Assembly: GCA_964016885.1 (NCBI GenBank)
Contig: OZ024740.1
Location: forward strand, 278,504,001 to 278,568,000
DNA length: 64,000 nt
Direction: 5' to 3'
From: Eledone cirrhosa
Taxonomy: Eukaryota
Positions 6,023 to 59,328 of this stretch are shown one piece after another (within the stretch, counting starts at the first letter, position 1; every line of letters begins with the position of its first letter). The notes beneath the pieces are model-generated. The model was given only the letters and a program-made list of their open reading frames with translations, was not told where the DNA came from and did not search any database. The position numbers were made by a program, and so were the translations under genes.

Positions 6023-7203
6023 CATACAACGGTTAGTTGAAACGTTCATTGGCTAACTATGAAGGAGTGATGCTAGAGCTGTGAAATCTTGCGTGCATTA
6101 ATTTCAACTCTTCTTGCTAATAACTGTTTCTTTCTAGGTACTATGTTGAAAAATAACCTTCATTTGGTCATTCCGTGAGAGTATCTTGGTCAGCCTATGA
6201 ACTTTTCAGCCGACACTTGTATAGCCAACACACCAACGACAGCAAGTATATGATTAAATATGTTAGTTCTGTTAATGAAATATAAATAGTTAACTTCCCT
6301 ATGTACAATCTGTCTGCTATAAACAGTTGACGGGATGTGTATTTTATGAATATTTCTTTACTGTGTGTTGCTAACATTCAAGAATTCTTGATGACTCTTC
6401 ACAAAAGTAGAAATTCTTGTGTCACCAGCGGTTATTTTTTATTTAATTGTTTTGGGTTTTTTTTGGGGGGGGGGGCATTTATAAACACTGCCTCATTGAA
6501 AAGCAGCTTGCTATAAAGCAATTTCTTTACAGAGATGCTATCTACGATTTTCTGTAGAGCTATACAATTGATATTTTCTCCCTACTTTTGCTCCATTGGG
6601 ATTCGTCAAAATTTTATTTCGTCGTAAAAGCGTTGTACGTGGATCCTTAATTTGATACATATCAGAAGATAAAAATTCCATCTCTTTCTTTTTACTCTCT
6701 TATACCCTCGCTTTCCTCTCTCTATCTCTCTCTTTATCTACTTCTCACTAGCTTTCTCTATCTACCTATCTAACACTCTCTCTTTCTTGTCAGTTAGTGA
6801 TTCATATGTAACAAGAATTCAATGAAAAATTAGAACACAATCCAAGCATGCACACTGTTATATAAATGTGTGCTGTGATGCCTGGGTGTAATGCTATATA
6901 TATATATGCGTACTTGTTTGTGGGGGGGGTACAGAATAATATATCAATAAAATATTGTCAGCACAGTAATAAAACAGTGTTTATCCCTTGAATCAAAAAT
7001 ATATTATCAAAACATCAAATACTCTATTTTGTTCATCCTTTATATATATATATGTGTGTGTGTGTGTACACGCACACACATACATACATATATATATATA
7101 TATGTGTATGTGTGTGTACACACACACACATACACATATCTAGATTAAGGGATATATCAAGGAAATTTGCTAATTTATCATTATTCTCGAATTCTATTAG
7201 CAT

Positions 7204-8430
7204 TAGAATTCGAGAATAATGATAATTTAGCAAATTTCCTTGATATATCCCTTGATGTAGATACCGGCCTATATTACCCATCTCATAAGGATAATGAGAA
7301 CCTAAATTACGTTAACTTTAAATCTAACCACCCGCATAATGTTAAAACTGCTATAGTCAGAAGTGTAGAAAAAAGAATTTCTAATTTATCCTCTAATAAA
7401 GATATCTTCGAAGCTAATGCCAACTATTATAATAATGCGTTATCTAGGGCTGAATATCCAGACAAAATTAGATACACTAAGGAAACTAATCTTGGCAGAA
7501 CTTATAGTAATGTAGCTAGTAATAATCATACCACTAACAAAAGGAGGAGACCTAGGTATAAAATATCCTTTGGTACAACGCTCCCTTCTCCCTTTCAGTT
7601 ATTAATAATATCCCTAAATTATTTTTTCGGGCTTAAGATAACAGCTTCCCTCCTTCACATATATATAGTAACATTTTCAATAAGCATACTATTAAATTCT
7701 CATATTCCACTACTTCCAACATTTCAAAAATTATCTCAAGACATAATTCTAAAATAGTAAATAATAACTCATATGCATCCAACCATGAGAGTCATAATAA
7801 TAACACTATAAGGCCCGACGTCAATGTAAACTCTAGTCAAAATAACACAAGTATAAATACGACGTCAATTGTAACTTTGAGGAATGCTTCAAATAGTAAT
7901 GTAAATCTGGAAACTTTAGCAGCTCCTTTAGCTAATTCCACCACTCCAGTTCCTAATATAATTAATCCTGGGCCACTTGCAAATAACTCTGTTAATAATC
8001 TTAATCGTAAATGCAACTGCCCTATTAGAACTAATTGTCCTCTTAGTAATTGCTGTCTCGATAAAAACCAAATATACGAATGTAAAGTGCTAACTAGTAC
8101 CAATACCTATACCTACATTGGCTCTACTTCTACCTCTTTTAAAGCAAGACTCTATAATCATTCTTCTACATTTAAATATCCACTTAAAAGGACCAACGCC
8201 GCACTCTCAGAACTTATTTGGTCCTTAAAAGACAAAAACATTAACTACGAAATTTCTTGGCGTAAAATCTGCAACGCTTCTCCATACTCCAATGCTTCCA
8301 TATCTCGTGTTTGTAATTTATGTCTAGCTGAAAAATTTACCATTATCTCGAATTTTAACTCTATAATACAGATTTATTTGGTCTTTGTAATCATAAATCC
8401 TTCAAGACCTTCCACAAAGTATATAGCTAA
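7204..8430 (+). pseudogene. Frameshifted PLE RT C-terminus plus GIY-YIG endonuclease
   Basis: ORFs 7167-7757 and 7877-8440 are in different frames and homologous to 39753-42072. Confidence 0.85.
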
Positions 8431-9234: not shown

Positions 9235-9304
9235 TATTTTATCTGATGAGAACACAATTTTTGTCCCAGGATGATATTGTTTTCGAAATGCGCATAATAA
9301 AATA
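9235..9304 (+). ncRNA. Type I hammerhead ribozyme with palindromic stem III
   Basis: tattttat-CTGATGA-gaacacaat..attgttttc-GAAA-tgcgca-TA-ataaaata; overlaps AATAAA. Confidence 0.85.
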
Positions 9305-14535: not shown

Positions 14536-16140
14536 TTAATTAGGTTTATAATATTTAAATGTTTTTTTTAGTTTATGATTACACGATATAATTAATTCCT
14601 GTCGTTTATTTAATAAGATATCCTTAGACTTCATTATTTCAAATAGTTCTTGGGAACATAATCTACATTCATTTCTATTATTTTGATAAGGGGTGGCTCT
14701 TTTGAGCACACTCCAGGTCAAATCATATTTTATATTCTTATTTTTATAACTATTGATTTTTTCTGCTAGAGATGTTGTATTAGCCAGTGCGGCATTTTTA
14801 AAACTATGCTTGTGGGTATTAAACCTTGTCTTAAAATTGTTAGAGGTAGCTCCTATATATGAGCAAATAGAATCTTTAGTTTTAACATTACATTTATAGA
14901 CTATGTTGTTAACAAGACAATTCCCTTTTAATGGGCAGTTTGCTTTGTTTCTACAGTTACATCCTTTCGTTAATTCTGTATTTGAGGAGATATTATGGTT
15001 AATTTGATGTACTGGTGGTATACTTATGGTTTTCTTACATTTATATGCATTATATGCACTTATATTTTGTTTTATGTTATTTGTTGTAGAGTATGAGAAT
15101 TTAACTGTAGACCTATTTAAGATTTGATGGTATTTGTGGTTTGGCGGGAAGTTTTTCTCAAGGATATAAAAAAATTTTTTAGCAATATTATCCTTAACTT
15201 GTAAATTAAAAGGAGCATTATACCAAGTAACCCGTCTATTACGGTTTCTATGTTGTTTATTATTTTTATTATTTTTATAGGTTGTATCGTGATTTTTACT
15301 AGGAGGATTAATGTTAATGATCTCACCACAACTATTTTTAGTTATATTTGTAGATTTAGGTGTTTTATCCTTTTTATTAGGAGTTTTATTATTAATATTT
15401 ATTAGAGTTGTATGATGAGTAGTTTTTTGAGAGTTACTATACTTTATATTAGAAGATTTGGTATTTTGGGGTATAGTGTGGGTGGCATTTAGGTGTGTAC
15501 TTTTCATTTGGTGTTTGTTGGTAATATTATGTTGTATGCTTTCAGTATTTTTAGTAGAAGGTATATACTCTAATCTATTTTTGTGGCCACTTCTATCTAG
15601 AGCTTCGTTATAGAAGGTCGCATTTTTATCAAATACATCTTGGTTAGAAGAAAGGTTAGAAATTCTAAGTGATATATTATATGCAAGGTTTTTAAGGATA
15701 GATTTAGGGTGATTAGATTGTGAGTGTATGTAATGTAAGTTTTGGTTAGGTTTATGGTAAGGTTGGTAGATACCTGTAGCTAAATCTAAAGTTATATCTA
15801 GGAAATTTACTACTTTACTTGTTTTTTCAAAAGTAATATTAAGATTATAATAGTCTTTAAGGAAAGTTCTAATATGTTTTTTGTTTTTTTCAATTTCTGA
15901 AAGGTTAAGGTTGTTAGAAAGAAGAAGACAGTCATCACGATATAAACCCCCTTTGAGGTGGGGAAAAGAGACATTTATGTTGAAAAGGAGAAAGAGGCCC
16001 ACAAGATCAGTAATTTGGGCGGAATCGCTTGAACCCATAGTAATATCAAAAAGATTACTGTATGTGTTTCTGGTCCAGTATTCATTCTGAAATTCAATAA
16101 GTGTTAGTCTAGCATGTGTAATAATGTTAATGTCATCCAA
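14536..16140 (-). CDS. PLE reverse transcriptase (5'-truncated) plus GIY-YIG endonuclease, 534 aa open frame
   Basis: FDITMGS, GGLYRDD, VNFLDITL, SNHP, CNCRNKANCPLKGNCL, NIVY..YIGAT..FKTR, CRLC, CNH. Confidence 0.92.
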   Translation of the reverse strand: MDDINIITHARLTLIEFQNEYWTRNTYSNLFDITMGSSDSAQITDLVGLFLLFNINVSFPHLKGGLYRDDCLLLSNNLNLSEIEKNKKHIRTFLKDYYNLNITFEKTSKVVNFLDITLDLATGIYQPYHKPNQNLHYIHSQSNHPKSILKNLAYNISLRISNLSSNQDVFDKNATFYNEALDRSGHKNRLEYIPSTKNTESIQHNITNKHQMKSTHLNATHTIPQNTKSSNIKYSNSQKTTHHTTLININNKTPNKKDKTPKSTNITKNSCGEIININPPSKNHDTTYKNNKNNKQHRNRNRRVTWYNAPFNLQVKDNIAKKFFYILEKNFPPNHKYHQILNRSTVKFSYSTTNNIKQNISAYNAYKCKKTISIPPVHQINHNISSNTELTKGCNCRNKANCPLKGNCLVNNIVYKCNVKTKDSICSYIGATSNNFKTRFNTHKHSFKNAALANTTSLAEKINSYKNKNIKYDLTWSVLKRATPYQNNRNECRLCSQELFEIMKSKDILLNKRQELIISCNHKLKKTFKYYKPN

Positions 16141-16289
16141 AGTTAAGGGTTTTACATGTATCCAAAGTTAAGGGTTTTACATGTATATACACACACCGAA
16201 CTGCATTTAACCCTTTGTGTTTTCATTGGTCAATTTTGTTCCCAAACGGAACTGAAATTTTGAATTGTTGTTATTATCAATAAATATAC

Positions 16290-21129: not shown

Positions 21130-22850
21130 AGCTTAATGAAGGCAGTTTGAGAATAATTCACTTTTTTTGTTAATTAAGTTTTCATAATTAGTAATTATTA
21201 ATAGGGTCTCCTTAGTACAGAGGTTGCAGTTAGTTGATATAGACGAGTTCGAGTAAATTCTACTATTACAAAGCTTCGTCCAAAAAATCGAGTATTTAAA
21301 AATTTTTGTCTTTTAATGACCATATAAGTTGTGATAAAGAAGTCGAAGACTTCCTATTAGGATTCGAAAACGAGCATTTGTGATTCGCAAATCTCGATTT
21401 AAATGTCGAAGAAGTTGCCCCTATGTAGTTGTATATGATTTTATTTGCTTTTACGGTGCATTTATACACCAAATTTCTATCCAGACAATTATTTTGCAGA
21501 GGGCAATCTGGTTTATTTCTACAATTACATTTCGATTTATTATTATTTATATTAACACTATTATTAACACCATTATGCTGATTTTGGTTTAGAATTCTAC
21601 TATTTAGTTTAGCGATGTTTTGGGCCATATTCATAGTTGTAGAATAAGAAAGCTTAATTGTGTGTCTATTAAATATGGAACGGTATTTATGTTGACTAGG
21701 GAAGGAATTATCTAAAGCCTGAAAGAATAGATTAGCTAGTGGTGTTTTTACTGCTACAGAAGCAGGGGGGGTGCAAACCATATAACTGATTTAGTTTTGG
21801 TTTTTCCCCAATTTATTCACAGCACAGGTGTTTGAATTATAATTTTTAGAATTTCGTTTATACATGCCAGTCATATTATTATTATTTTTATCAGGATTAA
21901 GATTCGAATTATTATTGTCTATATATTCTATATTATTTTTATAACCTGCCTTTCTTAGCGCATCATTGTAATATCCTGCTTTTTCATCAAATATTGATTT
22001 ATTAGCAGACATTCTAGTTATGCGTTTCTGTACACTATTGACAATTGCATTTTTCACAGATTTAGGGTGATTAGAGTAATAACTAACGTAATTTAAGTTT
22101 TCATTGGCCTTATGGAAAGGGTAATAAAAACCAGAGTTTAAGTTAAGGGTAACATCAAGGAAATTAACTATTTTGGTACCACTTTCAACCTCTAATTTAA
22201 GGTCGTAATTTTTAAAGAATTCAATTATATTTTTCTTAACCCTATTTAGTTCTGTATAGCTGTGTTTAACAACCGTAAATAAAATTTCGTCCCTATATAA
22301 ACCACCGGTAATCTCCGGCAGTTTTCTATTTACCATATTTAAGATGAAAATCCCCAGAAGATCCGTGACTTGCGCTGAATCCGATGATCCCATGGTAATG
22401 TCAAAGTTTTTCTATTTCTATCTGAGCGGGTCCAATACTCATTGTTGAAATTAATTAGAGTTCTTCTAGCAGTTAATATGATATCGATTTCATCCGTAGT
22501 TAGATCTGTATGTTTGTAAGCGTAGGATAAAGCCTTATTTAGTAGGTTAGGCGTAATGGAAGAGTAATAGCTTGTTATGTCCATCTGGATGAATTTATGG
22601 TTTTTCTTATCATCTATATTTTTATACCAAACAATCACTTCATTGGTGTCCTTCCACAAGCTCAATTTAGACCTCAATTTCAAAATAGGTAGAATTATAT
22701 CAATAATATTCTTACTGATTACTCCAATGTCCGATTTAGATGGAGCAATCAGTCTAACTGGCAGATCTTCCTCAAAGTTTCTTTTGTGATCTTTAAAATT
22801 AATCCTTGGCTGTCTAGGTATAGGAGGCTCGGTTCTTCCTTCAATTCCTA
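21130..22850 (-). pseudogene. PLE RT plus GIY-YIG with multiple frameshifts
   Basis: Three or more reading frames homologous to 39753-42072; catalytic YRDD changed to YRDE. Confidence 0.85.
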
Positions 22851-22856
22851 ATTTTT

Positions 22857-22923
<67 letters not shown>

Positions 22924-29400: not shown

Positions 29401-30070
29401 TTAATCCCGTTGGGCCGCTCGGGGGGTCTGTGCGTACCCGGTCCCATGCCCCACATCTGTGCCATCCGGAGGATTCCATGCAGCAAATGTGCATCTTCTC
29501 TGGTGTCTGCAGGTCATGATAATTTCAGACTTCAGGTTGACCGCGTCAGCTTTCAGTCTGACTATCTCCATGGCCTCGTGTAGGCATAATCGGCACTTTC
29601 TACTTCCAGCCAAATATGCCCTCGCATAGCGAACGATACTCCATTCCAGGGTGTACGGAGTGCCTTGGTCTTTCAGGTCTCACACCAGGTCTGCTAACCT
29701 AGTGGAGTGCCTTTTGCTACGGTCCCTGAAGGAATTCGTGTGATTATACATCCGCGATTTAAAGGTCGTGGATGTTACGCCGATGTATATTCGATGCGTA
29801 TTTTGGGTGGTAACCACACACTTGTATATCAGGTCCTTCGTCAGGCATTTTCCCAACAGGGGGCACTGGGTGCCCGCTCTGCAGTTACAAGTTCTGTTGT
29901 CGGTTCTTTCGCATCTGATGTCTGGGCTTCGATCTGTTATGGCCCTCTCAGTGTTCACAGGGTGTTGTTCCGCCGACACTGTGGTCTCCCCTATGCCACT
30001 CGTTCCCTCTCGACGTTGTCCACATCACCTTCCGCGAGCGTTCCGGCAACCTCGGGGGCCAGGTTGTCAT
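29401..30070 (-). pseudogene. PLE GIY-YIG endonuclease fragment with an in-frame TGA
   Basis: [23 protein letters not shown], stop at 29680-29682, then CRLC and CRH. Confidence 0.85.
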
Positions 30071-32192: not shown

Positions 32193-33025
32193 TCAGCATG
32201 TACCCATGGGAGGTCGGGTACCCTGTATTACTGCGTGACGCCAGAAGTCACGGTCGTCTGTCATTGACTTTGAGAGGTGTAGTTGGGTAAGGTCGGCTTT
32301 TATCACCTCATCCCAAGTCATCTTGGGTCTCCCCACTCCGCGGTTTCCATCAACTTCTAGTGCTCTGCACCTTTTTATGCAGCTGTCATCCTTCATACGC
32401 ATCACATGTCCATACCAGCGTAACCGCCTCTCCTGCACGCAGCATTTGATTCCTCTTATGCTCAGTCTCTCTCTCATTTCCTTTATGCTTTGTCGTTCAC
32501 GTATATTACTGTTACACATCCATCGGAGCATGCAGGCTTCGTTTCTCTCTAATCTACGTAAGTCTTCCACCTTCAGCGCCCAGGTCTCACTACCATGCAA
32601 CATCGCTGTTCGGATACACGCATCATACAGTCTGCCTTTCATTCTGAGGGAGAAGCCTTTTGCAGCTAGCAGTGGTAGTAGTTCCCTAAACTTCTTCCAT
32701 CCCGTTCTTACCCTAGTTATTGTACTTTCTGAGCACCCACCTCCGTTGCTAATTCGGTCACCTAGGTAGCAGAAGCTGTCTACTGTATCTACAGGGCCCT
32801 CCCAGAGATTGGTGGTACTTGTTTCCTGTGGCTGTTTGCTTGCTGTTTCAGCACAGCTGCTGCATGTGAATCCTACATTCTTAATTAAGCTTCCTGAGAT
32901 CCCGCTACATCTCTTGTGTACCCATTGTTTGCATTTGGGCAGAGAATGGAGTTCCTACCTACACCTTTCCTACATACTGAGCAAGGCCATTTCCTGAGGG
33001 GATCTGGGTTCTGTTTTCTCGTCTA
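32193..33025 (-). pseudogene. RTE ORF C-terminal part (Cys-rich finger plus thumb), out of frame
   Basis: WPCSVCRKGVGRNSILC..WVHKRCSG near 32900-32990; ORF 32193-32642 with HGSETW and RLRWYGHV. Confidence 0.85.
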
Positions 33026-35209
33026 CTTATAAGGACCCTTAGTCTTTGTCATGTTGACTTTGAGGCCCTTTCTCTCTAGTCCCTGCTTCCAGGTTTGGAA
33101 TTTATTCTCTAGTTCTACCATAGATTCAGCTATGAGTGCGAGGTCATCAGCATGCAGGAGTTCCCATGGGCATCCGGTCTTAAACTCCTCCGTTATTGCC
33201 TGCAGGACTATGATGAACAGGAGAGGGCTAAGAACAGAGCCCTGGTGGACCCCAACCTGTACGCTAAATTCCTCGCTATACTCATTGCCAATCCTAACTT
33301 TGCTGACTGCTCCCCTATACATGGCTTGTACCGCTTTCACAAGCCATTCATCTACTCCTAGTTTTCTAAGAGCCCACCAGATTACTGCACGTGGAACTCT
33401 GTCAAAGGCTTTCTCAAGGTCGACAAATGCCAAGTAGAGTGGCTTACTTTTAGCTAGGTACTTTTCCTGTAATTGCCTCACAAGGAAGAGGGCATCAGTG
33501 GTGCCTTTCCCTGGTACAAACCCAAATTGCATCTCGTCTATATTCACCCGGTCCCTAATCAGCTGTGCTATAACTCTTTCTGTTACTTTCATGACCTGGT
33601 CCATCAACTTTATACCTCTATAGTTTCCTCTATCTAGTGCATCGCCTTTACCTTTGTAGCAGTTGACAATGATGCTACTGCACCAATCTTTTGGTATGGC
33701 CCCCTCTAGTATTACCTGGTTAACGATACGTGTGGTTATAGTGTGACCTACAGACCCAGATGCCTTCAGCATCTCGGCAGCTATACCCGATGGACCGGTT
33801 GCCTTCCCTATCTTCATATCTCTGATTGCCTTACTTACTACGCTGCCGCTGACTTGTACTGCTGGTCCCTCTATAGGGTCTACGTGGGGTAGGGTCTCTT
33901 CTTCCCATGCATTCTCCTCATTTAGTGATCTATCATAATGACTCTTCCATGCATCTTTCTTCTCAGCACTTGTGAGGGCAAGCTCACCTTTATCATTCCG
34001 GATACACTTCTCTCCAATGACATCACAACTATCTCTGACACACTGCCTCGCAATCTTGAATACCTCCTGTTTCTGGTCCTCACGTTGTAAAACATGCTTG
34101 AATTTTCTATCCTCTGCTTCCCTCCTAGCTAAGTATACTTGTCGCCTAGCTTCCCTCTTGGTCTCTATGTAATGTACCCTGCTCCCCCCGTTCTTCCATT
34201 CTTTCCATGCCTGTCTCTTGGCCTTGACTGCTTCATCTACCTTATTGTTCCACCACCAAGTCACTCTCCTCCTGCTTGAGGTCTTACTCCAGCCACAAAC
34301 CTCATCCGTCGCCTCTAGTAAGTTATTTTTTAGGAACTCCCAGTTCTCTTCTACGTTAAATGTCTCTATCTGTTCTTCTTTACTGTCGTAGGCGTTGAGT
34401 AAAATATCTTTAAATCTGTTACTGGTTGAGGGGACTTTCAGCTTCCAGATCTTTCTTCTCCAGGTTGGCCTCTGTTTCAGGGCTCGTCTAGTTCTGACCG
34501 TGAGGTCGCTGACAACTAAGCTATGTTGGGATGTACATTCCTCACTAGGGAAGGCTTTTGTGTTTACGACCGTCCATCTGTCACGTCCTCTGATGAGGAT
34601 AAAATCTAACTGACTAGAGTGCTCCCCTGATCTATAGGTGATCAGGTGGTTGTCGGGTTTTTTAAAGTTTGTGTTACATATCGACATGTCATTGGCGTCG
34701 CAGAATTCTAGAAGTCTGAATCCTTCCTCATTCCTTGTGCCAACTCCATGGCCTCCATGTACTCTATTGAAGCCGTCGCAGTGTTTACCTACGTGTCCGT
34801 TAAAATCTCCTGCAATGATTAGGAAGTCCTTGTCGTCTGTTAGAGCTGTAGTGTGTATTAGGGACTCGTAAAACCTATCCTTAAGTTCGTCTGGCAGCCC
34901 CGATTGGGGTGCGTAAGCTGATATTATTGTGGTAATTGTCTTATTCAGGACTAGTCTGAGTTTAATGATTCTTGCATTTACCCTGTACACTGAGATTACT
35001 TTATCTACCTTATCTACCCACTTGTCAGCTAATAGTATACCTACACCACCCATCCCATCGTCATTTCCCACCCAGAAAAATTTGTAGCACTGGCTTTTTC
35101 CTACAAGGACTCTAGCAGACCCTCCTCTCCATCTAGTCTCTTGCACACAGCATACATCAACTTCCTTTCGCTCTAGCATTTCTACGATTTCTCCTGCTCT
35201 TCCTTTCAT
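33023..35209 (-). CDS. RTE APE endonuclease plus reverse transcriptase (frameshifted at the C-terminus; YADD changed to HADD)
   Basis: CVQETRW, GDFNGH, LDFIL, NYRGI, FVDLEKAFD, GVHQGSVLSPLLF, LLHADD. Confidence 0.92.
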   Translation of the reverse strand: MKGRAGEIVEMLERKEVDVCCVQETRWRGGSARVLVGKSQCYKFFWVGNDDGMGGVGILLADKWVDKVDKVISVYRVNARIIKLRLVLNKTITTIISAYAPQSGLPDELKDRFYESLIHTTALTDDKDFLIIAGDFNGHVGKHCDGFNRVHGGHGVGTRNEEGFRLLEFCDANDMSICNTNFKKPDNHLITYRSGEHSSQLDFILIRGRDRWTVVNTKAFPSEECTSQHSLVVSDLTVRTRRALKQRPTWRRKIWKLKVPSTSNRFKDILLNAYDSKEEQIETFNVEENWEFLKNNLLEATDEVCGWSKTSSRRRVTWWWNNKVDEAVKAKRQAWKEWKNGGSRVHYIETKREARRQVYLARREAEDRKFKHVLQREDQKQEVFKIARQCVRDSCDVIGEKCIRNDKGELALTSAEKKDAWKSHYDRSLNEENAWEEETLPHVDPIEGPAVQVSGSVVSKAIRDMKIGKATGPSGIAAEMLKASGSVGHTITTRIVNQVILEGAIPKDWCSSIIVNCYKGKGDALDRGNYRGIKLMDQVMKVTERVIAQLIRDRVNIDEMQFGFVPGKGTTDALFLVRQLQEKYLAKSKPLYLAFVDLEKAFDRVPRAVIWWALRKLGVDEWLVKAVQAMYRGAVSKVRIGNEYSEEFSVQVGVHQGSVLSPLLFIIVLQAITEEFKTGCPWELLHADDLALIAESMVELENKFQTWKQGLERKGLKVNMTKTKGPYK

Positions 35210-35260
35210 TGAGCCTACATTGATGGTACCCTACATTGATGGTACATATATATATATATA

Positions 35261-37092: not shown

Positions 37093-39429
37093 TGCTTTGT
37101 ACGGCTTTTGGAGAAAGGAGTGACCAGCAGTGCGTTGTTAGGTATTATTACGAAAAGGTGTAGCAGATAACCCCGCGTGAACTAACAGCTCGGGAGGAAA
37201 CTGCTTATCTCGAACATTCATTCGCCATCGTTCTTGTCAACGCTCCGTTTTTTGGTATTTGTTGGTCTACAGTTAGATGAATGGTGCACAAAGGGTTAAT
37301 GTTTATTTGCAAGAATTTTTTTGAATAATAAAAGACGGGTTAAAGCAACCTACAATGTATCTGTATATATATATATATAAAATTTCAGGTTATCAATAAT
37401 GTAGTGATAATATATCGTTACGTTAGAGATGAACAGCGTACGTGCAGGTTTGCTCAACGAGTATAAATTATATTCCGGAGAAATGTAGAAAGGATGAATA
37501 TAAAATGAAAGTGCTTTTGTTAAAAAAGGAATTTATTAGGTATTGACATATGTTTCTGTAACAGACCGAATACCTATGTATCGCTGCTTGCGTAATCATA
37601 TAATGTTAGCAAGTATTCGATAGCAAATGTATAATCAGTTGTCACTTCTTCAGAGATTTTGGATAAACTGGATAAAATCAGAAAAATTGAAGTATTTATA
37701 TTAGTAAAAGAGGAAGGAACAGAGGGGATAGAATATGACAGATGGTAAAATAATTTACTGCTAAACAAGTATATAATGGGTTTTTAATGAGAATACCATG
37801 AGTAAATCTAAATAAGAATTTTGGGGGTGCCGATTTTAATCTCTACTTGACCAACTGGACAGTGGACAGGGCTGGTCATTTGGTGCAGTAGTATTAATCA
37901 TAAAGTGTCAATTGGGGAAGGGGGAGATTTCGATTGCTACTAAATAACATCAATGCTAGTGGTCAGCTGGTATTTGCACTAGGGAATTGAATAAAAAAAT
38001 CAGAAATCTCATTTTATCTATAGCAGTTTGTATTAAAAGGTAAATAATAGAAGAGTTGATAGAATTAAGACTAATAAAGAATGTTCATATCTATTTTGAC
38101 AATCAAACGGGGATAGAGACAGGCGTTCAATCCTGGTAGTATTTATAATATGAAAATGTAGATTTTAAGCGATGGTTACAGTATAACGATCGCTCTATTC
38201 TGTTATTTAATAAAATGTTTTTGGATTTCATAATACAAAATAATTCTACATTACATAATCTACAAAATTCCTGTCCATTGGAATATGGGGGGCAGTCGCT
38301 ATTATATCCCATTTTAGGTGAAATTGTTGGTTATTTTCACGCAGCTGCCAAGCCTTGTCTGCGAGTGTTGTTACATAACGCTGGTTTTCATGTTTTATCG
38401 AATAACACATAACAATACACGTAAAACATTAGCTATAACATCACAAAACAACAAACAACATCCTGTCCTACATAAGCAACCTCATCAACCCATCCATGGC
38501 AATACAACAACGCAAAATTGTAATTGCAACTGTCTCCAACCAGGAATGTGTCCGTTGAACAACCAGTGTCTTGAACGCAACATCGTATACAAATGTACTA
38601 TCGAATCGGATAGACAGAAGTGGTACTATGTGGGATCTACAGCCACCTCCTTTAAATCACGCCTTTATAGACATCGTTATTCGATAAAACATGAAAACCA
38701 GCGTTATGTAACAACACTCGCAGACAAGGCTTGGCAGCTGCGTGAAAATAACCAACAATTTCACCTAAAATGGGATATAATAGCGACTGCCCCCCCATAA
38801 TCCAATGGACAGGAATTTTGTAGATTATGTAATGTAGAATTATTTTGTATTATGAAATCCAAAAACATTTTATTAAATAACAGAATAGAGCGATCGTTAT
38901 ACTGTAACCATCGCTTAAAATCTACATTTTCATATTATAAATACTACCAGGATTGAACGCCTGTCTCTATCCCCGTTTGATTGTCAAAATAGATATGAAC
39001 ATTCTTTATTAGTCTTAATTCTATCAACTCTTCTATTATTTACCTTTTAATACAAACTGCTATAGATAAAATGAGATTTCTGATTTTTTTATTCAATTCC
39101 CTAGTGCAAATACCAGCTGACCACTAGCATTGATGTTATTTAGTAGCAATCGAAATCTCCCCCTTCCCCAATTGACACTTTATGATTAATACTACTGCAC
39201 CAAATGACCAGCCCTGTCCACTGTCCAGTTGGTCAAGTAGAGATTAAAATCGGCACCCCCAAAATTCTTATTTAGATTTACTCATGGTATTCTCATTAAA
39301 AACCCATTATATACTTGTTTAGCAGTAAATTATTTTACCATCTGTCATATTCTATCCCCTCTGTTCCTTCCTCTTTTACTAATATAAATACTTCAATTTT
39401 TCTGATTTTATCCAGTTTATCCAAAATCT

Positions 39430-39546
39430 CTGAAGAAGTGACAACTGATTATACATTTGCTATCGAATACTTGCTAACATTATATGATTACGCAAGCAGC
39501 GATACATAGGTATTCGGTCTGTTACAGAAACATATGTCAATACCTA
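39430..39546 (+). ncRNA. Atypical hammerhead motif (copies at 42545-42661 on + and 37537-37653 on -)
   Basis: CTGAAGA-a-gtgaca..tgttac-a-GAAA-catatg-TC-aataccta; canonical stem I is only 1 bp. Confidence 0.6.
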
Positions 39547-39752
39547 ATAAATTCCTTTTTTAACAAAAGCACTTTCATTTTATATTCATCCTTTCTACAT
39601 TTCTCCGGAATATAATTTATACTCGTTGAGCAAACCTGCACGTACGCTGTTCATCTCTAACGTAACGATATATTATCACTACATTATTGATAACCTGAAA
39701 TTTTATTAATCTCCTATACAGTTGAGCAACTAATTCAGCATACGCTTCTAAA

Positions 39753-42072
39753 ATGGAAAGGCACCAATTGGATATGTCGTTAAAAAACATACCTATTCAG
39801 GCAAAAAGGGAATATATTCTAGGTATGATACGAAGGACCAATGATTTTATTCGACGAATCAGATGGAAAACATTCCATTTTGACAAAAGCCGTATAAACC
39901 AAACATCGGATCTTAACAAGGATAAATTTGGATTTAAATCTTACAAGAACCCACCCTCAAACCCACTTTTGGATGCATTTGAACAAGACCTAATGGATAT
40001 GATCATGGAGATCAAATTTACAAAACGTAAGAACAATAAACTACAGAATGACATCACGGCACTGCTCAATAATCTAAAAAACGCCAATGGAGTTATTGTT
40101 AGAGCAGACAAAACATCAAACGTATATACCATGGATGTGGACACTTACAATAACTTCATCCGTAAGGAATTGCATAAAAAATACAGGAAAACTAATGAAG
40201 CCACACTTAAAAACATCAACAACTCGGCATGTGATATTGTTAAAAAACTTTGTATTGACGATAGAACGCAACCCTTAACACCAGCTATACCATCCTTCAA
40301 CCTGAAGGACCACAAGGTAAACTTCGATACTAACCCTAATATTAGACTTATATGCCCCTCTAAATCTGATATAGGTAAAATTAGCAAATATATACTAGAC
40401 AGAATTATCCCCCAAGTTAAGGTTAAAGTAGAGATTAAACTATGGGGTAACACTCATGAAGCAATAAGATGGTTTAACAACATTACTGATAAGAAAAAAT
40501 CAAAATTTATTCAGTTTGATATTGATGAATATTATTCCTCAATTTCACCTGATACTCTACATGAAGCTCTTTCGTTCGCTAAGGATAATTCCGACCTTAC
40601 GGATGCTGAAATTAAAATTATTATGGAAGCGAGAAAAACTATAGTTAAATTCGATGATAGCTACTGGGTTCGCAAAGATAGACCTTCTAATTTTGATATC
40701 ACTATGGGTTCTAATGATTCGGCGGAGGTAACAGATCTTGTGGGAATTTATATCACCCACAGATTACAAGGAAAATTCAAGGATCTCCACGGTGGAATTT
40801 ACCGTGACGATGCGCTCCTATTAGTTAAGAATATGAATAACCAGAATTTAGAAAGGATGCGTAAAAATATCAGAAAACTTTTTAAAGAACTAGGATTAAA
40901 TATTACATTTGAATATAACCTCAAAGAGGTCAATTTCCTTGATGTTACTTTCAATCTCAATACAGATACGATTAAACCGTTCCATAAACTAAATGAGAAC
41001 CTTAAATATGTAAATACGAGTTCTAACCATCCACTCTCTATAATTAAATCCATCCCTAGAAATGTTTCTCTTAGAATCTCCCGCCTATCGTCCAACCAAC
41101 AAACCTTCAAAGAACATGCCGAGTATTATGATGATGCACTTAGGAAAGCCGATCACCTAGATAATATAGAGTATATAGTCAATGATCACCAAAACACCCA
41201 AAATAAATCACATAGGAGTAGAAATAGCACAGAATCACCACCATACATACACTACCGCAATAGACACAAAAATAGTCGCACACCACCAAACAGAAGGCGA
41301 TGTAAGGAGTATATCTGGTACAACCCGGTCTATAACAAATCTATTAAAACCAATCTACCCTCAAAATTCTTTCGATTAGTTAGAAAACACTTTCCAACAT
41401 CACATAAATATAATAAAATCTTAAACCCTAACACCATCCGACTTTCATATTCAACCGCCCCTAATATTGAACAACATATAAAAATGCTTAACGCAAAACG
41501 GTTGTATAAACGCCTTCCAACACATAACAATACACGTAAAACATTAGCTATAACATCACAAAACAACAAACAACATCCTGTCCTACATAAGCAACCTCAT
41601 CAACCCATCCATGGCAATACAACAACGCAAAATTGTAATTGCAACTGTGTCCAACCAGGAATGTGTCCGTTGAACAACCAGTGTCTTGAACGCAACATCG
41701 TATACAAATGTACTATCGAATCGGATAGACAGAAGTGGTACTATGTGGGATCTACAGCCACCTCCTTTAAATCACGCCTTTATAGACATCGTTATTCGAT
41801 AAAACATGAAAACCAGCGTTATGTAACAACACTCGCAGACAAGGCTTGGCAGCTGCGTGAAAATAACCAACAATTTCACCTAAAATGGGATATAATAGCG
41901 ACTGCCCCCCCATAATCCAATGGACAGGAATTTTGTAGATTATGTAATGTAGAATTATTTTGTATTATGAAATCCAAAAACATTTTATTAAATAACAGAA
42001 TAGAGCGATCGTTATACTGTAACCATCGCTTAAAATCTACATTTTCATATTATAAATACTACCAGGATTGAA
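39753..42072 (+). CDS. PLE RT plus GIY-YIG protein, 720 aa to a premature TAA at 41913-41915; natural end at 42072
   Basis: SLKNIP, ADKTSN, FDIDEYYSSI, FDITMGS, GIYRDD, CNCVQPGMCPL, YVGST..FKSR; after the stop, CRLC..CNH continues in frame. Confidence 0.93.
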
Positions 42073-42707
42073 CGCCTGTCTCTATCCCCGTTTGATTGTC
42101 AAAATAGATATGAACATTCTTTATTAGTCTTAATTCTATCAACTCTTCTATTATTTACCTTTTAATACAAACTGCTATAGATAAAATGAGATTTCTGATT
42201 TTTTTATTCAATTCCCTAGTGCAAATACCAGCTGACCACTAGCATTGATGTTATTTAGTAGCAATCGAAATCTCCCCCTTCCCCAATTGACACTTTATGA
42301 TTAATACTACTGCACCAAATGACCAGCCCTGTCCACTGTCCAGTTGGTCAAGTAGAGATTAAAATCGGCACCCCCAAAATTCTTATTTAGATTTACTCAT
42401 GGTATTCTCATTAAAAACCCATTATATACTTGTTTAGCAGTAAATTATTTTACCATCTGTCATATTCTATCCCCTCTGTTCCTTCCTCTTTTACTAATAT
42501 AAATACTTCAATTTTTCTGATTTTATCCAGTTTATCCAAAATCTCTGAAGAAGTGACAACTGATTATACATTTGCTATCGAATACTTGCTAACATTATAT
42601 GATTACGCAAGCAGCGATACATAGGTATTCGGTCTGTTACAGAAACATATGTCAATACCTAATAAATTCCTTTTTTAACAAAAGCACTTTCATTTTATAT
42701 TCATCCT

Positions 42708-43980: not shown

Positions 43981-44740
43981 TTATCCATATAGCTTGAAGA
44001 AAGTTCCCGTCCTTAGGTGTCTGCAGGCACCGAATAAGTCGGCCCTTCTGTTTAATAGCTTGGTTCCGCCATGAAGAATATCGAGTGTCGCACTAAGACA
44101 GAGGTTGCAAATTCCAGACCCGCCTCTGTCTGGGGGAACCTTTCGAACCATGGACCAGACCAGAGAGTGCGGGGTCTTTTCAAGTTTGAGCTTCCAGATC
44201 AATTCAGAAAGGGCCGTACATTTCCTTTATCTATTTGTTAAAGGAATGGCGATGATTATACCACCGAGCTTTGAAGCTCGTCGCTGTGGATCCTATGTAG
44301 TGGTGCTCCGAGTTAGAGGTTGTGACCTTGCACCTGTAGACCACGTTTTTGGTCATGCATTCATTACTAAGGGGGCATAGCGATGGGTCTCTGCAATTAC
44401 ATGACTTCTTAAGCCCCACCACATGTACCGCGTGGTTAGCATCACTCGGGGTTGGCTGGGTAGCCTCCGCAATCAGCACAGGGTCGTTGGGTTCCGGTGT
44501 GCTAGTTGGGCCTGTCTGGGTTCCGATGCGTCCCGCGTACTGGTTCTGTTGGGTGGCTCCGGGGTTTACGGTGGTATTAGAGGCAGTGAGCCTATTCCTA
44601 TTTATGCCAGCTATGTGCTGGGCTACGGAGCGTGTGGTTGAGTAGGAAAGTTTCACCGTGTGCCTGTTGAATATTTTATGGTACTTATGGGCCCTAGGGA
44701 AACATATATCCAGTACTCTAAAGAATGTTCTAGCCAGGCT
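43981..44740 (-). pseudogene. PLE GIY-YIG endonuclease, frameshifted
   Basis: ORFs 44231-44806 and 43981-44202. Confidence 0.85.
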
Positions 44741-44862
44741 GATATATATATATAAGGTTAATGATAATGTTACAATAAAAGTAGGTGACAAGTGTAACAT
44801 AAACAAAATATTTCACATTGTTACAATAAAACTGTTATAGGGAAATACTGAATGTTCTTTAA

Positions 44863-56728: not shown

Positions 56729-59328
56729 TGCTCCTAGAGAAAGAACTATTGCTCCTACACAACAACAAAAACATACGAAAAACATAAGTGAGGGTACCCT
56801 TGAGACTGTGATGGGAAAACTCCAAGATAAGAAAACACCAGGAAGAGACATGATTGTCGGCTACTGGTACAAAAACTGATATTCTATCGGAGGTACGTTA
56901 CGGACCTCTACCAACAAGTTCTTAAGGGAGATACACTTATACCAGAATAGTTGACATTAGCACAAACATTACTGGTCCCCGAGAACAAAGACACCCACTT
57001 GGCAAAAAACTACCGACCCGTTGCATGCCAGAACCTGATGTATAAGATGTATACAGCCTGCCTGAACCTATTCCTCCAAGATCACTGTGAAAATAATAAC
57101 ATCATCACAGATGAACAAGCAGCTGGAAAGAAAGGGGTTTGGGGATGTGCTGACCAACTCCTAATCAACAAAACTGCGATGTCGGAGGTGAACAACTTAG
57201 AAGGAATATGGCTACAGTCTGGCTGGACTACAGGAAAGCTTTCGATTCTGTTCCCCACTCTTGGATGATAGAGGCCCTCCAACTTGCTAAAGTCCCAGAC
57301 ATTATTGTCAGAGCCATAGAGAGGCTGTCTTCTTCTTGGGCTACTATCCTCAGGTTAAAGACAGAGAGGGAGGACTCTATTTTCACTGATAAAATAAAAT
57401 ATTGCAGGGGTATATTTCAGGTGTACAGTCTCTCTGTGATATTATTCATCTTGTCATTAAACCTCTTGTCCTTTCTGCTCAAGATATGTGAGGGATACAT
57501 CATTGGTTCACAGGAGGACAGAAATACGAACCTAACCCATAATTTCTATCTGAAACTCTATGCCAAGAACATGGATGGGATGAAGAAGAATCTTGACCTG
57601 GTTACAACGTTCTCAAAGGATATAGGAAGGGAGTTTGGTTAAGCTAAATGCTCATACATGACTATAAAGCGAAGAAAAACAACAACCCAATCTAGCAACA
57701 TTGTCATCAATGGCCTAACTGTTACACCGATATCTGATGAGGACTGCTACAGATACCTGGGGATAGATGAGAACATATCCTATAATGGTATCTGTAATAA
57801 AGAACGCGTAACCAGGGAATACTACACCCGATTAAGAAATATCTGGTCATCGGAACTCTCTGCGCAAAACAAAACAGTGGCTCACAATGGGTTTGCTGTG
57901 CCTGTCCTAACACCAGCGTTTGGAATACTCAATTGGACGATAGACGAAATCCGAGCAGTTGATGTTGGAACTCGAAAAATACTGAACAACACCGGAAACT
58001 TCCACATCAACAGTGACATAGACCGCCTTTACTTGAAACGTAAGCAGGGAGGCAGAGGCCTAACATCAGTCCAGACAACATTTGAATGTCGCATCATATC
58101 TCTCCGACAACATCTACGAACCTCGAAGCGTAGAAGCCCGTTTCTCAAGCAAGTCTATCTGCATGAAACAGATAAGATCATTAGAGTTGGGAAGGAATTC
58201 CTTGAGAGATATTCCCTGTGTGATAATCAAAAACTCACACCCAGGGATGTCGCTCAGCAGTATCGCAGTGAATCCATGGATGAAAAACTGCATGCCTATC
58301 AGCAAAAAATCATGCATGGATATGTTGCCAGGAATCTCCAGAGTGAGAGTAATATAGATAAGGAAAGTAGTCTATCTTGGACCAACAACCGCTATATTGA
58401 CTCCCACTTTGAGGATACGCTTTTACAATCCAGGAACAGGAGATTAGCACGAAATACCTGATTCACAAAAGAGATAGGGATGCAGGCAAAACACCTAGAT
58501 GTGATAACAAGTGCAGACCCTGCAGAACTAACATTGAGGATATCACCCATGTCATCAGCAGCTGTCCAAAGATGTCATCGCGGTACTATCTACCTATGAG
58601 GCATGATGTAGTGGCCAAAACACTGTACAATGCTGTTCGTAAAAAAGATAGCCCCGATAATAAATACATTAAAAGCTACAACAATGTGGAAAACATCCAT
58701 GTACATAATATGAAAGAGTACTGGTGGAATGTTCCAGTAAAAACCCCAATAAAATGCAGGCATAACAGACCAGATATTATGATATGGGATAGGGAGAAGA
58801 AAACATGCACAGTAGTAGAAATTAGCTGCCCAGCAGATGCCAATACAATATCAAAGATTAGTGAAAAGGAGAATATTTATGCACAACTGATGAGAAATCT
58901 GCAGATACTCCACCCTGATTACACCTTCAGATGTATGCCTGTGATTGTTGGGGCACTGGGATATGTTAGTAACTGCCTCAATACAAATCTTGAGAAGCTG
59001 GGCTTCACAGGAATAGAAAGAACACAACTAGTTAGGAAATTACAAGTACAACCCATTAATGGAACAGTAAAAATATGTAAAACATTCCAAAAATGTTGCA
59101 TCTAATAACTACATATACACATGTACAGATACAAAGCATATACACATGCACACATACAACTCAAAACATACACATCCACACATACAATAACATCCATATC
59201 TACACATGCATGCATACATACATATCTACCTAGTTGATGTGTAAATTCCAATGAGAGAGTCTTGTGTCTATGTTAGAAACCGCCTCTCTCTATTGGTAAA
59301 ACTTTGTGAAATTATAAAACCAGAAGAA
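56728..59328 (+). mobile_element. 5'-truncated R4/Dong-type non-LTR retrotransposon (RT plus restriction-like endonuclease), degenerate
   Basis: NYRPVAC, WLDYRKAFDSVPH, GIFQ..SLS, YRYLG, GGRGL, CCHC finger, RHD, RPDIMIWD..VEISCP; (CATA)n on both sides. Confidence 0.9.

Follow-up and report, generated by a model that had tools for sequence, protein, structure and literature searches.

A Penelope-like element hammerhead with a one-base-pair stem I and a candidate substitute strand inside its stem II arm

Results

In a family of Penelope-like element (PLE) retrotransposons of Eledone cirrhosa, designated family A, the hammerhead motif has lost its normal stem I, and its stem II arm carries a strand perfectly complementary to the eight bases that follow the predicted cut. 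Read from the sequence, this combination of helix loss and complementary strand is a real, family-wide oddity. The explanation that we put first, though with somewhat less than an even chance, is that the family A hammerhead cuts after the GUC ending at 39538 with this pseudoknot as its stem I, acting in a dimer. For the 8-bp helix, whose sequence and conservation are documented below together with the stem loss, a catalytic role is a candidate only and unproven. Positions are those of the window, the whole 64,000-nt stretch of contig OZ024740.1 that was analysed, which lies in a 3.0 Gb genome.

The host element has a single ORF (39726-41915, +) whose translation, read by eye, contains at 39753..41915 a reverse transcriptase (RT) followed by a C-terminal GIY-YIG-like endonuclease with a YYVG motif. 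The RWK, DKT and CxCX5C linker motifs, given for the Hydra clade of PLEs in the available text of PMC8557442, are present, together with CxxC and CxH in the endonuclease tail. A Pfam search of the ORF returned 0 families, and its homologues in the protein database were 32-40% identical. The original prediction of a PLE hammerhead was borne out. The insertion sits in (TA)n as a tandem with a unit length of 3115 bp plus an inverted, 5'-truncated partner (37377-38406), an arrangement like that of Hydra-clade PLEs, and the ORF is preceded by an upstream partial copy (pseudo-LTR) and 5' leader (38404..39725, +). Family 3' ends fall at 39600 or 39706, in (TA)n; these are two preferred insertion 3' ends, with a similar TTGAGCAA motif about 20-25 bases after each.

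A premature TAA (41913-41915) cuts the ORF of the window copy and is also found in the other direct copy (38798-38800), while the inverted copy has a sense codon there but a one-base deletion nearby. Most other family A copies read past this site, and intact ones continue to a 781-residue stop-to-stop frame. The 122-nt hammerhead motif is the same letter for letter at 39430 (+), at the 3' end of the full-length unit (42545..42666, +) and in the inverted partner (37532..37653, -). Since these three copies belong to one tandem-plus-inverted insertion they are not independent, and the argument that had been built on their identity failed, the insertion's own ORF having a premature stop. In the genome the cut-site motif of family A had 2,070 matches against 0 in the control, and all 100 of the 100 matches listed were members of family A.

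The motif copy at 39430 holds all parts of the type I core on the plus strand. The core box C3-A9 (CTGAAGA, 39430..39436), in which no variant is common to at least five of 99 family copies, is followed by a 90-nt stem II arm defined by folding (39437..39526) and by a block (39527..39538) made of GAAA (39527-30), the palindromic stem III (ACATATGT, with CATATG at 39531-36) and GTC (39536-38); the cut is predicted at 39538/39539, after GUC. CUGANGA, GAAA and NUH with A15.1-U16.1 are all present. Stem II pairs gtgaca (39438-43) with tgttac (39520-25), flanked by a39437 and a39526, and stem III reaches 8 bp only in a dimer (-7.0 kcal/mol). Core boxes, stem II, palindromic stem III and GUC were thus found intact in all three identical copies just where they had been predicted. 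The numbering of hammerhead positions and the range of U1 pairing used here are those in general use.

Stem I, which in a type I hammerhead stands directly before C3, is as short as had been claimed: within its normal 5' strand (39405..39429, +) only t39429 pairs adjoining the core, and t39429-a39539 is the only contiguous pair. Bulging c39428 gives a stem I of 1+2 pairs in the window copy (+5.9 kcal/mol) and 1+3 in the older subfamily (+5.0), and a possible distal 7-bp helix (39414-20/39547-53) is weak, with a pairing probability of about 0.2. An Rfam search at the motif found no hammerhead model.

The post-cut strand aataccta (39539..39546, +), with whose first base 11 genomic copies start, is complementary over 8 bp to taggtatt (39507..39514, +), the proposed substitute 5' strand of stem I. 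This pairing, a central point of the original prediction, was confirmed, and it begins exactly at base 1.1, at the cut. A perfect complement of bases 1.1-1.8 appeared in 0.27% of 20,000 dinucleotide shuffles of the 90-nt insert (P 0.003), and any 8-mer near the site in 4.4% of the same shuffles. The helix has an energy of -7.1 kcal/mol versus +3 to +6 for the best normal stem I of family A, and it is the sole stable partner of the post-cut strand. By folding, the arm also contains an inner hairpin (39458-39506, +), whose end at 39506 directly precedes the borrowed strand at 39507, and a rod extension of stem II in which atac (39451-54) pairs with gtat (39510-13) (+).

Folding placed the two subfamilies in different shapes. 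The window subfamily (G39516) forms a long stem II rod that leaves the post-cut strand unpaired (stem II P 0.97, helix P 0.02), and the older subfamily (C39516, the majority; 5 copies folded) forms a hairpin closed by the 8-bp helix (P 0.9-1.0) that traps GAAA and the cut site. Contigs of three runs confirmed C39516 as the majority form. Both predicted monomer ground states, rod and closed hairpin, are inactive; the folding program cannot score pseudoknots, and these monomer pairing probabilities leave the pseudoknot out. Summed by hand rather than taken from program output, the terms for stem II with the strand free (-15.8), the helix (-7.1) and dimer stem III (-7.0 per pair) put the pseudoknotted dimer at a rough estimate of about -26 kcal/mol per strand, which would beat the older closed hairpin by about 3 kcal/mol and fall short of the window rod as a dimer by about 3.

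The borrowed segment had also been proposed to switch to cgaatac in the insert. The letters do match, cgaatac (39464-70) being complementary to gtattcg (39510-16), but folding gave no support to the switch: its pairing probability was 0.00 in the window copy and in 5/5 older copies, and forcing it cost about 10 kcal/mol. Across families 52% of its cells were paired versus 53% in shuffles, and C39516 breaks its seventh pair in most copies. The real competitor of taggtatt/aataccta is atac at 39451-54, through gtat, not cgaatac. A decayed minimal hammerhead beginning right after taggtatt was likewise rejected, with only 2 of 6 core bases matching.

Variation within family A was compared in 99 distinct copies, what remained of 113 after 14 from a core-broken lineage had been set aside; four selected positions were excluded. 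Variants common to at least five copies fell at 4 of the 25 positions of the normal 5' strand (39410, 39415, 39417 and 39425, the last breaking a pair of the bulged stem I), at 1 of 63 in the insert and at one in the linker; the core, stem II, stem III and both helix strands had none. When three older copies were set against the window copy, the motif showed 1 fixed change in 126 nt versus 47 in 494 nt upstream (Fisher P 0.0003), and its difference from the ORF end (8/176) was not significant (P 0.085). The conserved block starts at C3, with three fixed changes in the preceding 20 bases. Conservation is likewise high 3' of the motif, and promoter or priming signals, or recombination, may therefore be partly responsible alongside the ribozyme.

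With 2,070 matches to the motif and both subfamilies affected, the loss of normal stem I is, on the sequence evidence, a trait of the family and not decay of the window copy. The earlier view that decay is unlikely stands on this family-wide ground, not on the three identical copies. Most of 30 loci examined (e.g. G000:C7:29755, C8:25091, C9:30257, C13:46073 and C19:29652) belong to a family A lineage whose core is broken and whose stem III is shortened. This lineage retains the 8-bp helix via a G-U pair; similar flanks and places near contig ends suggest that it spread by subtelomeric duplication.

A protein search of the genome identified the sister family B (76% identity over the query, 70-71% overall), and family D was found at a neighbouring locus (66-68% identity). 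A tree of only the genome families and unnamed homologues did not settle the order of A, B and D. Family A keeps the core of the canonical hammerhead of Hydra-clade PLEs with a stem I of 1 bp, whereas its sisters B and D have the canonical form. Family B has the same 90-nt arm with a normal 4-bp stem I, and its equivalent strand (TAGGTAAC) is the perfect complement of GTT^ACCTA, so that it covers the cut site; because it pairs across G16.2-U17, this helix cannot be catalytic and represents an off state. When A and B are aligned by the helix, two compensated pairs differ and the register relative to the cut is off by three bases. In family D stem I is normal (5 bp) and AGGT is retained without a partner; a pseudoknot partner predicted there in advance was absent. 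The AGGT of the borrowed strand is invariant in A, B and D, and the stem III loop differs in B and D yet remains palindromic.

Normal stem I has an energy of -3.5 to -4.1 kcal/mol in families B, C and E and of +0.1 in D. Families C, E, F and H and three other window motifs have a normal stem I (F, H and the window motifs judged by eye), and in every reconstructed family other than A it measures 4-6 bp. A few single copies have a stem I of 0-2 bp, and those that could be placed were decayed or cut by the locus end. A GU-rich pseudoknot in one family C copy was discarded, the majority of 30 old copies having a normal 6-bp stem I. The search for a second family with the pseudoknot wiring found none among 86 matches (50 loci read); a second search gave 24 matches, fewer than the control count and none with the wiring, and a recurring look-alike proved to be an unrelated repeat. 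Repeat families elsewhere in the genome carry GAAA, the palindrome and NUH but no upstream CUGANGA.

In 11 sequences of A, B and D, both partners have changed at 6 of the 9 stem II pairs and at 1 of the 4 pairs of the rod extension, where D is one base out of register. Covariation across related families, to which the original prediction had looked for support, did not materialise for the helix: 0 of its pairs covary in the core-anchored A/B/D alignment, in which 7 pairs are invariant and the one exception is due solely to an unpaired cell.

The element had also been called the youngest PLE, which holds within the window, but in the genome family D (e.g. G000:C3:214629200-214638000) has dozens of intact 785-residue frames and is no older than family A. 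Other hammerheads of the window, with normal stem I and long stem II arms, lie at 9243 (+), 16300 (+)/10338 (-) and 42858 (-), and Hydra-like ORF fragments lie near them at 7182-8284, 14689-16146, 21302-22857, 29632-29865 and 44131-44749. The window further contains the ORF of an endonuclease-RT LINE (33023-35230, -), which by eye we take to be RTE-like, and at 57154-59105 (+) a disrupted RT element whose tail is a restriction-like endonuclease.

If the RNA is cut at the predicted site, some insertions should begin at 39539. Of 35 genome matches in which the base preceding the cut is altered, 11 were 5' junctions at 39539, 23 were point changes and 1 was an unrelated sequence. At 39540 there were 3 junctions in 32, plus one mirror of an already counted event, at 39543 none in 17, and at 39537 6 in 31, five of the six with microhomology allowing 39539. 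In a 16-base window (19 matches; 6 internal indels dropped, two pairs merged) 4 of 11 events fell at the cut (P 0.0035). The same design applied to family D, as a control with normal stem I, showed no significant pile-up, with 2 of 17 at the cut (P 0.29; 18 matches, 1 unrelated dropped). Family B gave 2 of 7 (8 in the script), counted from 21 matches after removal of 9 unrelated ones and 5 internal changes. The junction peak in family A hints at cleavage in vivo. It is real but small, amounting to 11 of about 2,070 copies, and B and D calibrate it poorly. A pause of the reverse transcriptase at the helix would give 39546, not 39539.

Discussion

Site-specific self-cleavage at 39538/39539 is a prediction, to which the junction peak at 39539 speaks indirectly. 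We prefer the pseudoknot as its stem I because, if the family cuts, the helix is by far the most stable hold on the post-cut strand and the normal strand seems unused. The monomer would sit in one of its two inactive shapes, the rod in the window subfamily or the closed hairpin in the older one. Two RNA copies would then pair via the ACAUAUGU palindrome, which would open the inside of the closed hairpin and let stem II form while the 8-bp helix stays stacked at the cut. In the active form aataccta would pair with taggtatt from inside its own stem II arm, and u39429 may hold the first pair adjoining C3, on which the borrowed strand would stack. Probably family A inherited the helix in an off-switch role like that seen in family B, and the helix took over once the normal strand was lost.

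Several results weigh against this pseudoknot mechanism. The equivalent helix of B blocks the cut, D is without a partner, no helix pair covaries, the rod wins in the window subfamily and older copies fold the helix as an inactive hairpin. The 5-6 nt linker would also have to span the distance between the core and the far end of stem II, which counts against the mechanism as well.

The strongest alternative, which we nevertheless consider rather unlikely, is that the 8-bp helix serves only as an off-switch, an anti-ribozyme hairpin, and that the active form combines the long stem II rod and a minimal, bulged stem I, with dimerisation and the element's protein as aids. Family B, where the helix blocks the cut site next to a normal 4-bp stem I, fits this alternative, as does the closed hairpin of the older subfamily; both strands of the rod pairing atac/gtat differ in B (ttac/gtaa) and, judged by eye, in D (taac/gtta), there one base out of register. 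In the accessible parts of the sources, the D. virilis Penelope hammerhead has a helix I of 2 bp (PMC4209133) and the Anolis hammerhead cleaves only with its own protein (PMC11167929). Set against this, the bulged stem I is unfavourable by +5 to +6 kcal/mol, changes continue to arise in its 5' strand, among them the pair-breaking one at 39425, and insertions next to C3 are described in the consulted text of PMC3088659 as impairing natural hammerheads.

As part of the same alternative, the helix perhaps masks a splice donor, taggtatt also resembling TAG|GT at 39509/39510. This idea arose from the invariant AG|GT and the conserved AG before the start codon, an acceptor-like AG (39720-21) being conserved in A, B and D, but spliced genomic copies numbered 0 of 6, with 0 matches. 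The possible leader intron would be 212 nt long, from 39509/39510 to 39721/39722 with both ends conserved in the three families; its excision would take out GAAA, the cut site and an upstream ATG at 39534. Splicing as the source of a new stem I strand, known from D. virilis, was rejected, with no conserved AG seen by eye before the core.

Still less probable in our view is that the ribozyme has been dead since the loss of stem I, with the region kept for promoter, priming or protein binding and the helix a template-switching by-product or an inherited off-state. In its favour, only 11 of about 2,070 copies start at the cut, folding predicts an inactive ground state in either subfamily, conservation extends into the region 3' of the motif, and hammerhead cleavage was not needed for insertion of the Anolis element in vitro according to the portion of PMC11167929 consulted. 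This account is opposed by the conserved block starting at C3 after three fixed changes in 20 bases, by core bases that are all intact in both subfamilies, and by a junction peak at the exact predicted base.

In element type, location and type I order, and also in the mismatch at the stem II base and a short, mostly palindromic stem III, family A resembles the Hydra-clade PLE hammerheads described in the available text of PMC8557442, according to which all members of the clade have a canonical hammerhead close to the 3' end. It differs in its stem I of 1 bp and its 90-nt arm: in File S2 of that source, all 26 of the 26 Hydra rows have a contiguous stem I of at least 3 bp and a loop II of at most 10 nt. 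The D. virilis Penelope/min-HHR, in the text available from PMC4209133, shares a very short helix I (2 bp) and a palindromic stem III, and is described with dimer cleavage, low activity and an intron end overlapping the motif. Unlike the proposal for family A, it is presented there without a pseudoknot substitute for helix I, and its intron ends at helix I, whereas the donor-like site of family A lies inside the stem II arm.

Precedent for a pseudoknot in place of a core helix, in that case helix II, comes from the PK hammerhead and from the pseudoknot contacts described in the accessible parts of PMC11300833 and PMC3088659: a pseudoknot beside an additional stem-loop provides the helix, and a 1-bp helix backed by a pseudoknot is active. 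There helix II is replaced and helix I is normal (PMC11300833); family A would be the reverse, with a nested and covarying stem II. A pseudoknotted wiring of an unchanged core is also known from the non-circularly permuted SGC, CSG and GCS hammerheads, and in the sections of PMC10085705 consulted all six permutations assume that the stem I strand and CUGAnGA are joined as block C. Family A has the ordinary CGS order and is none of those three; block C itself would be split.

We hold tentatively, with a little less assurance than for the cutting mechanism, that in this natural hammerhead the stem II arm, and not a segment joined to CUGANGA, provides the 5' strand of stem I. Dimerisation would switch the ribozyme on, and the arrangement, evolved from an inherited off-switch helix, would add a seventh wiring to the six block permutations. 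In the literature searched, including the available parts of PMC6765202, PMC12192606 and bioRxiv 10.64898/2026.07.22.740005, no natural hammerhead was found whose stem II arm provides helix I, although short-stem-I cases may sit in supplements. The suggestion of an undescribed hammerhead topology thus survives as regards the split stem I/CUGANGA block, with its catalytic role unproven.

If the helix is only an off-switch, family A would be a modest regulatory variant of a known element. The junction pile-up is a rare genomic hint of a PLE hammerhead cutting in vivo, a question left open in the literature as far as the sources available go. If the pseudoknot is the catalytic stem I, it would break the assumption, made in the consulted text of PMC10085705, that the stem I strand and CUGAnGA are inseparable, and standard descriptors would miss a class of hammerheads. 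Families A, B and D would then form a natural series in which an inhibitory helix becomes catalytic.
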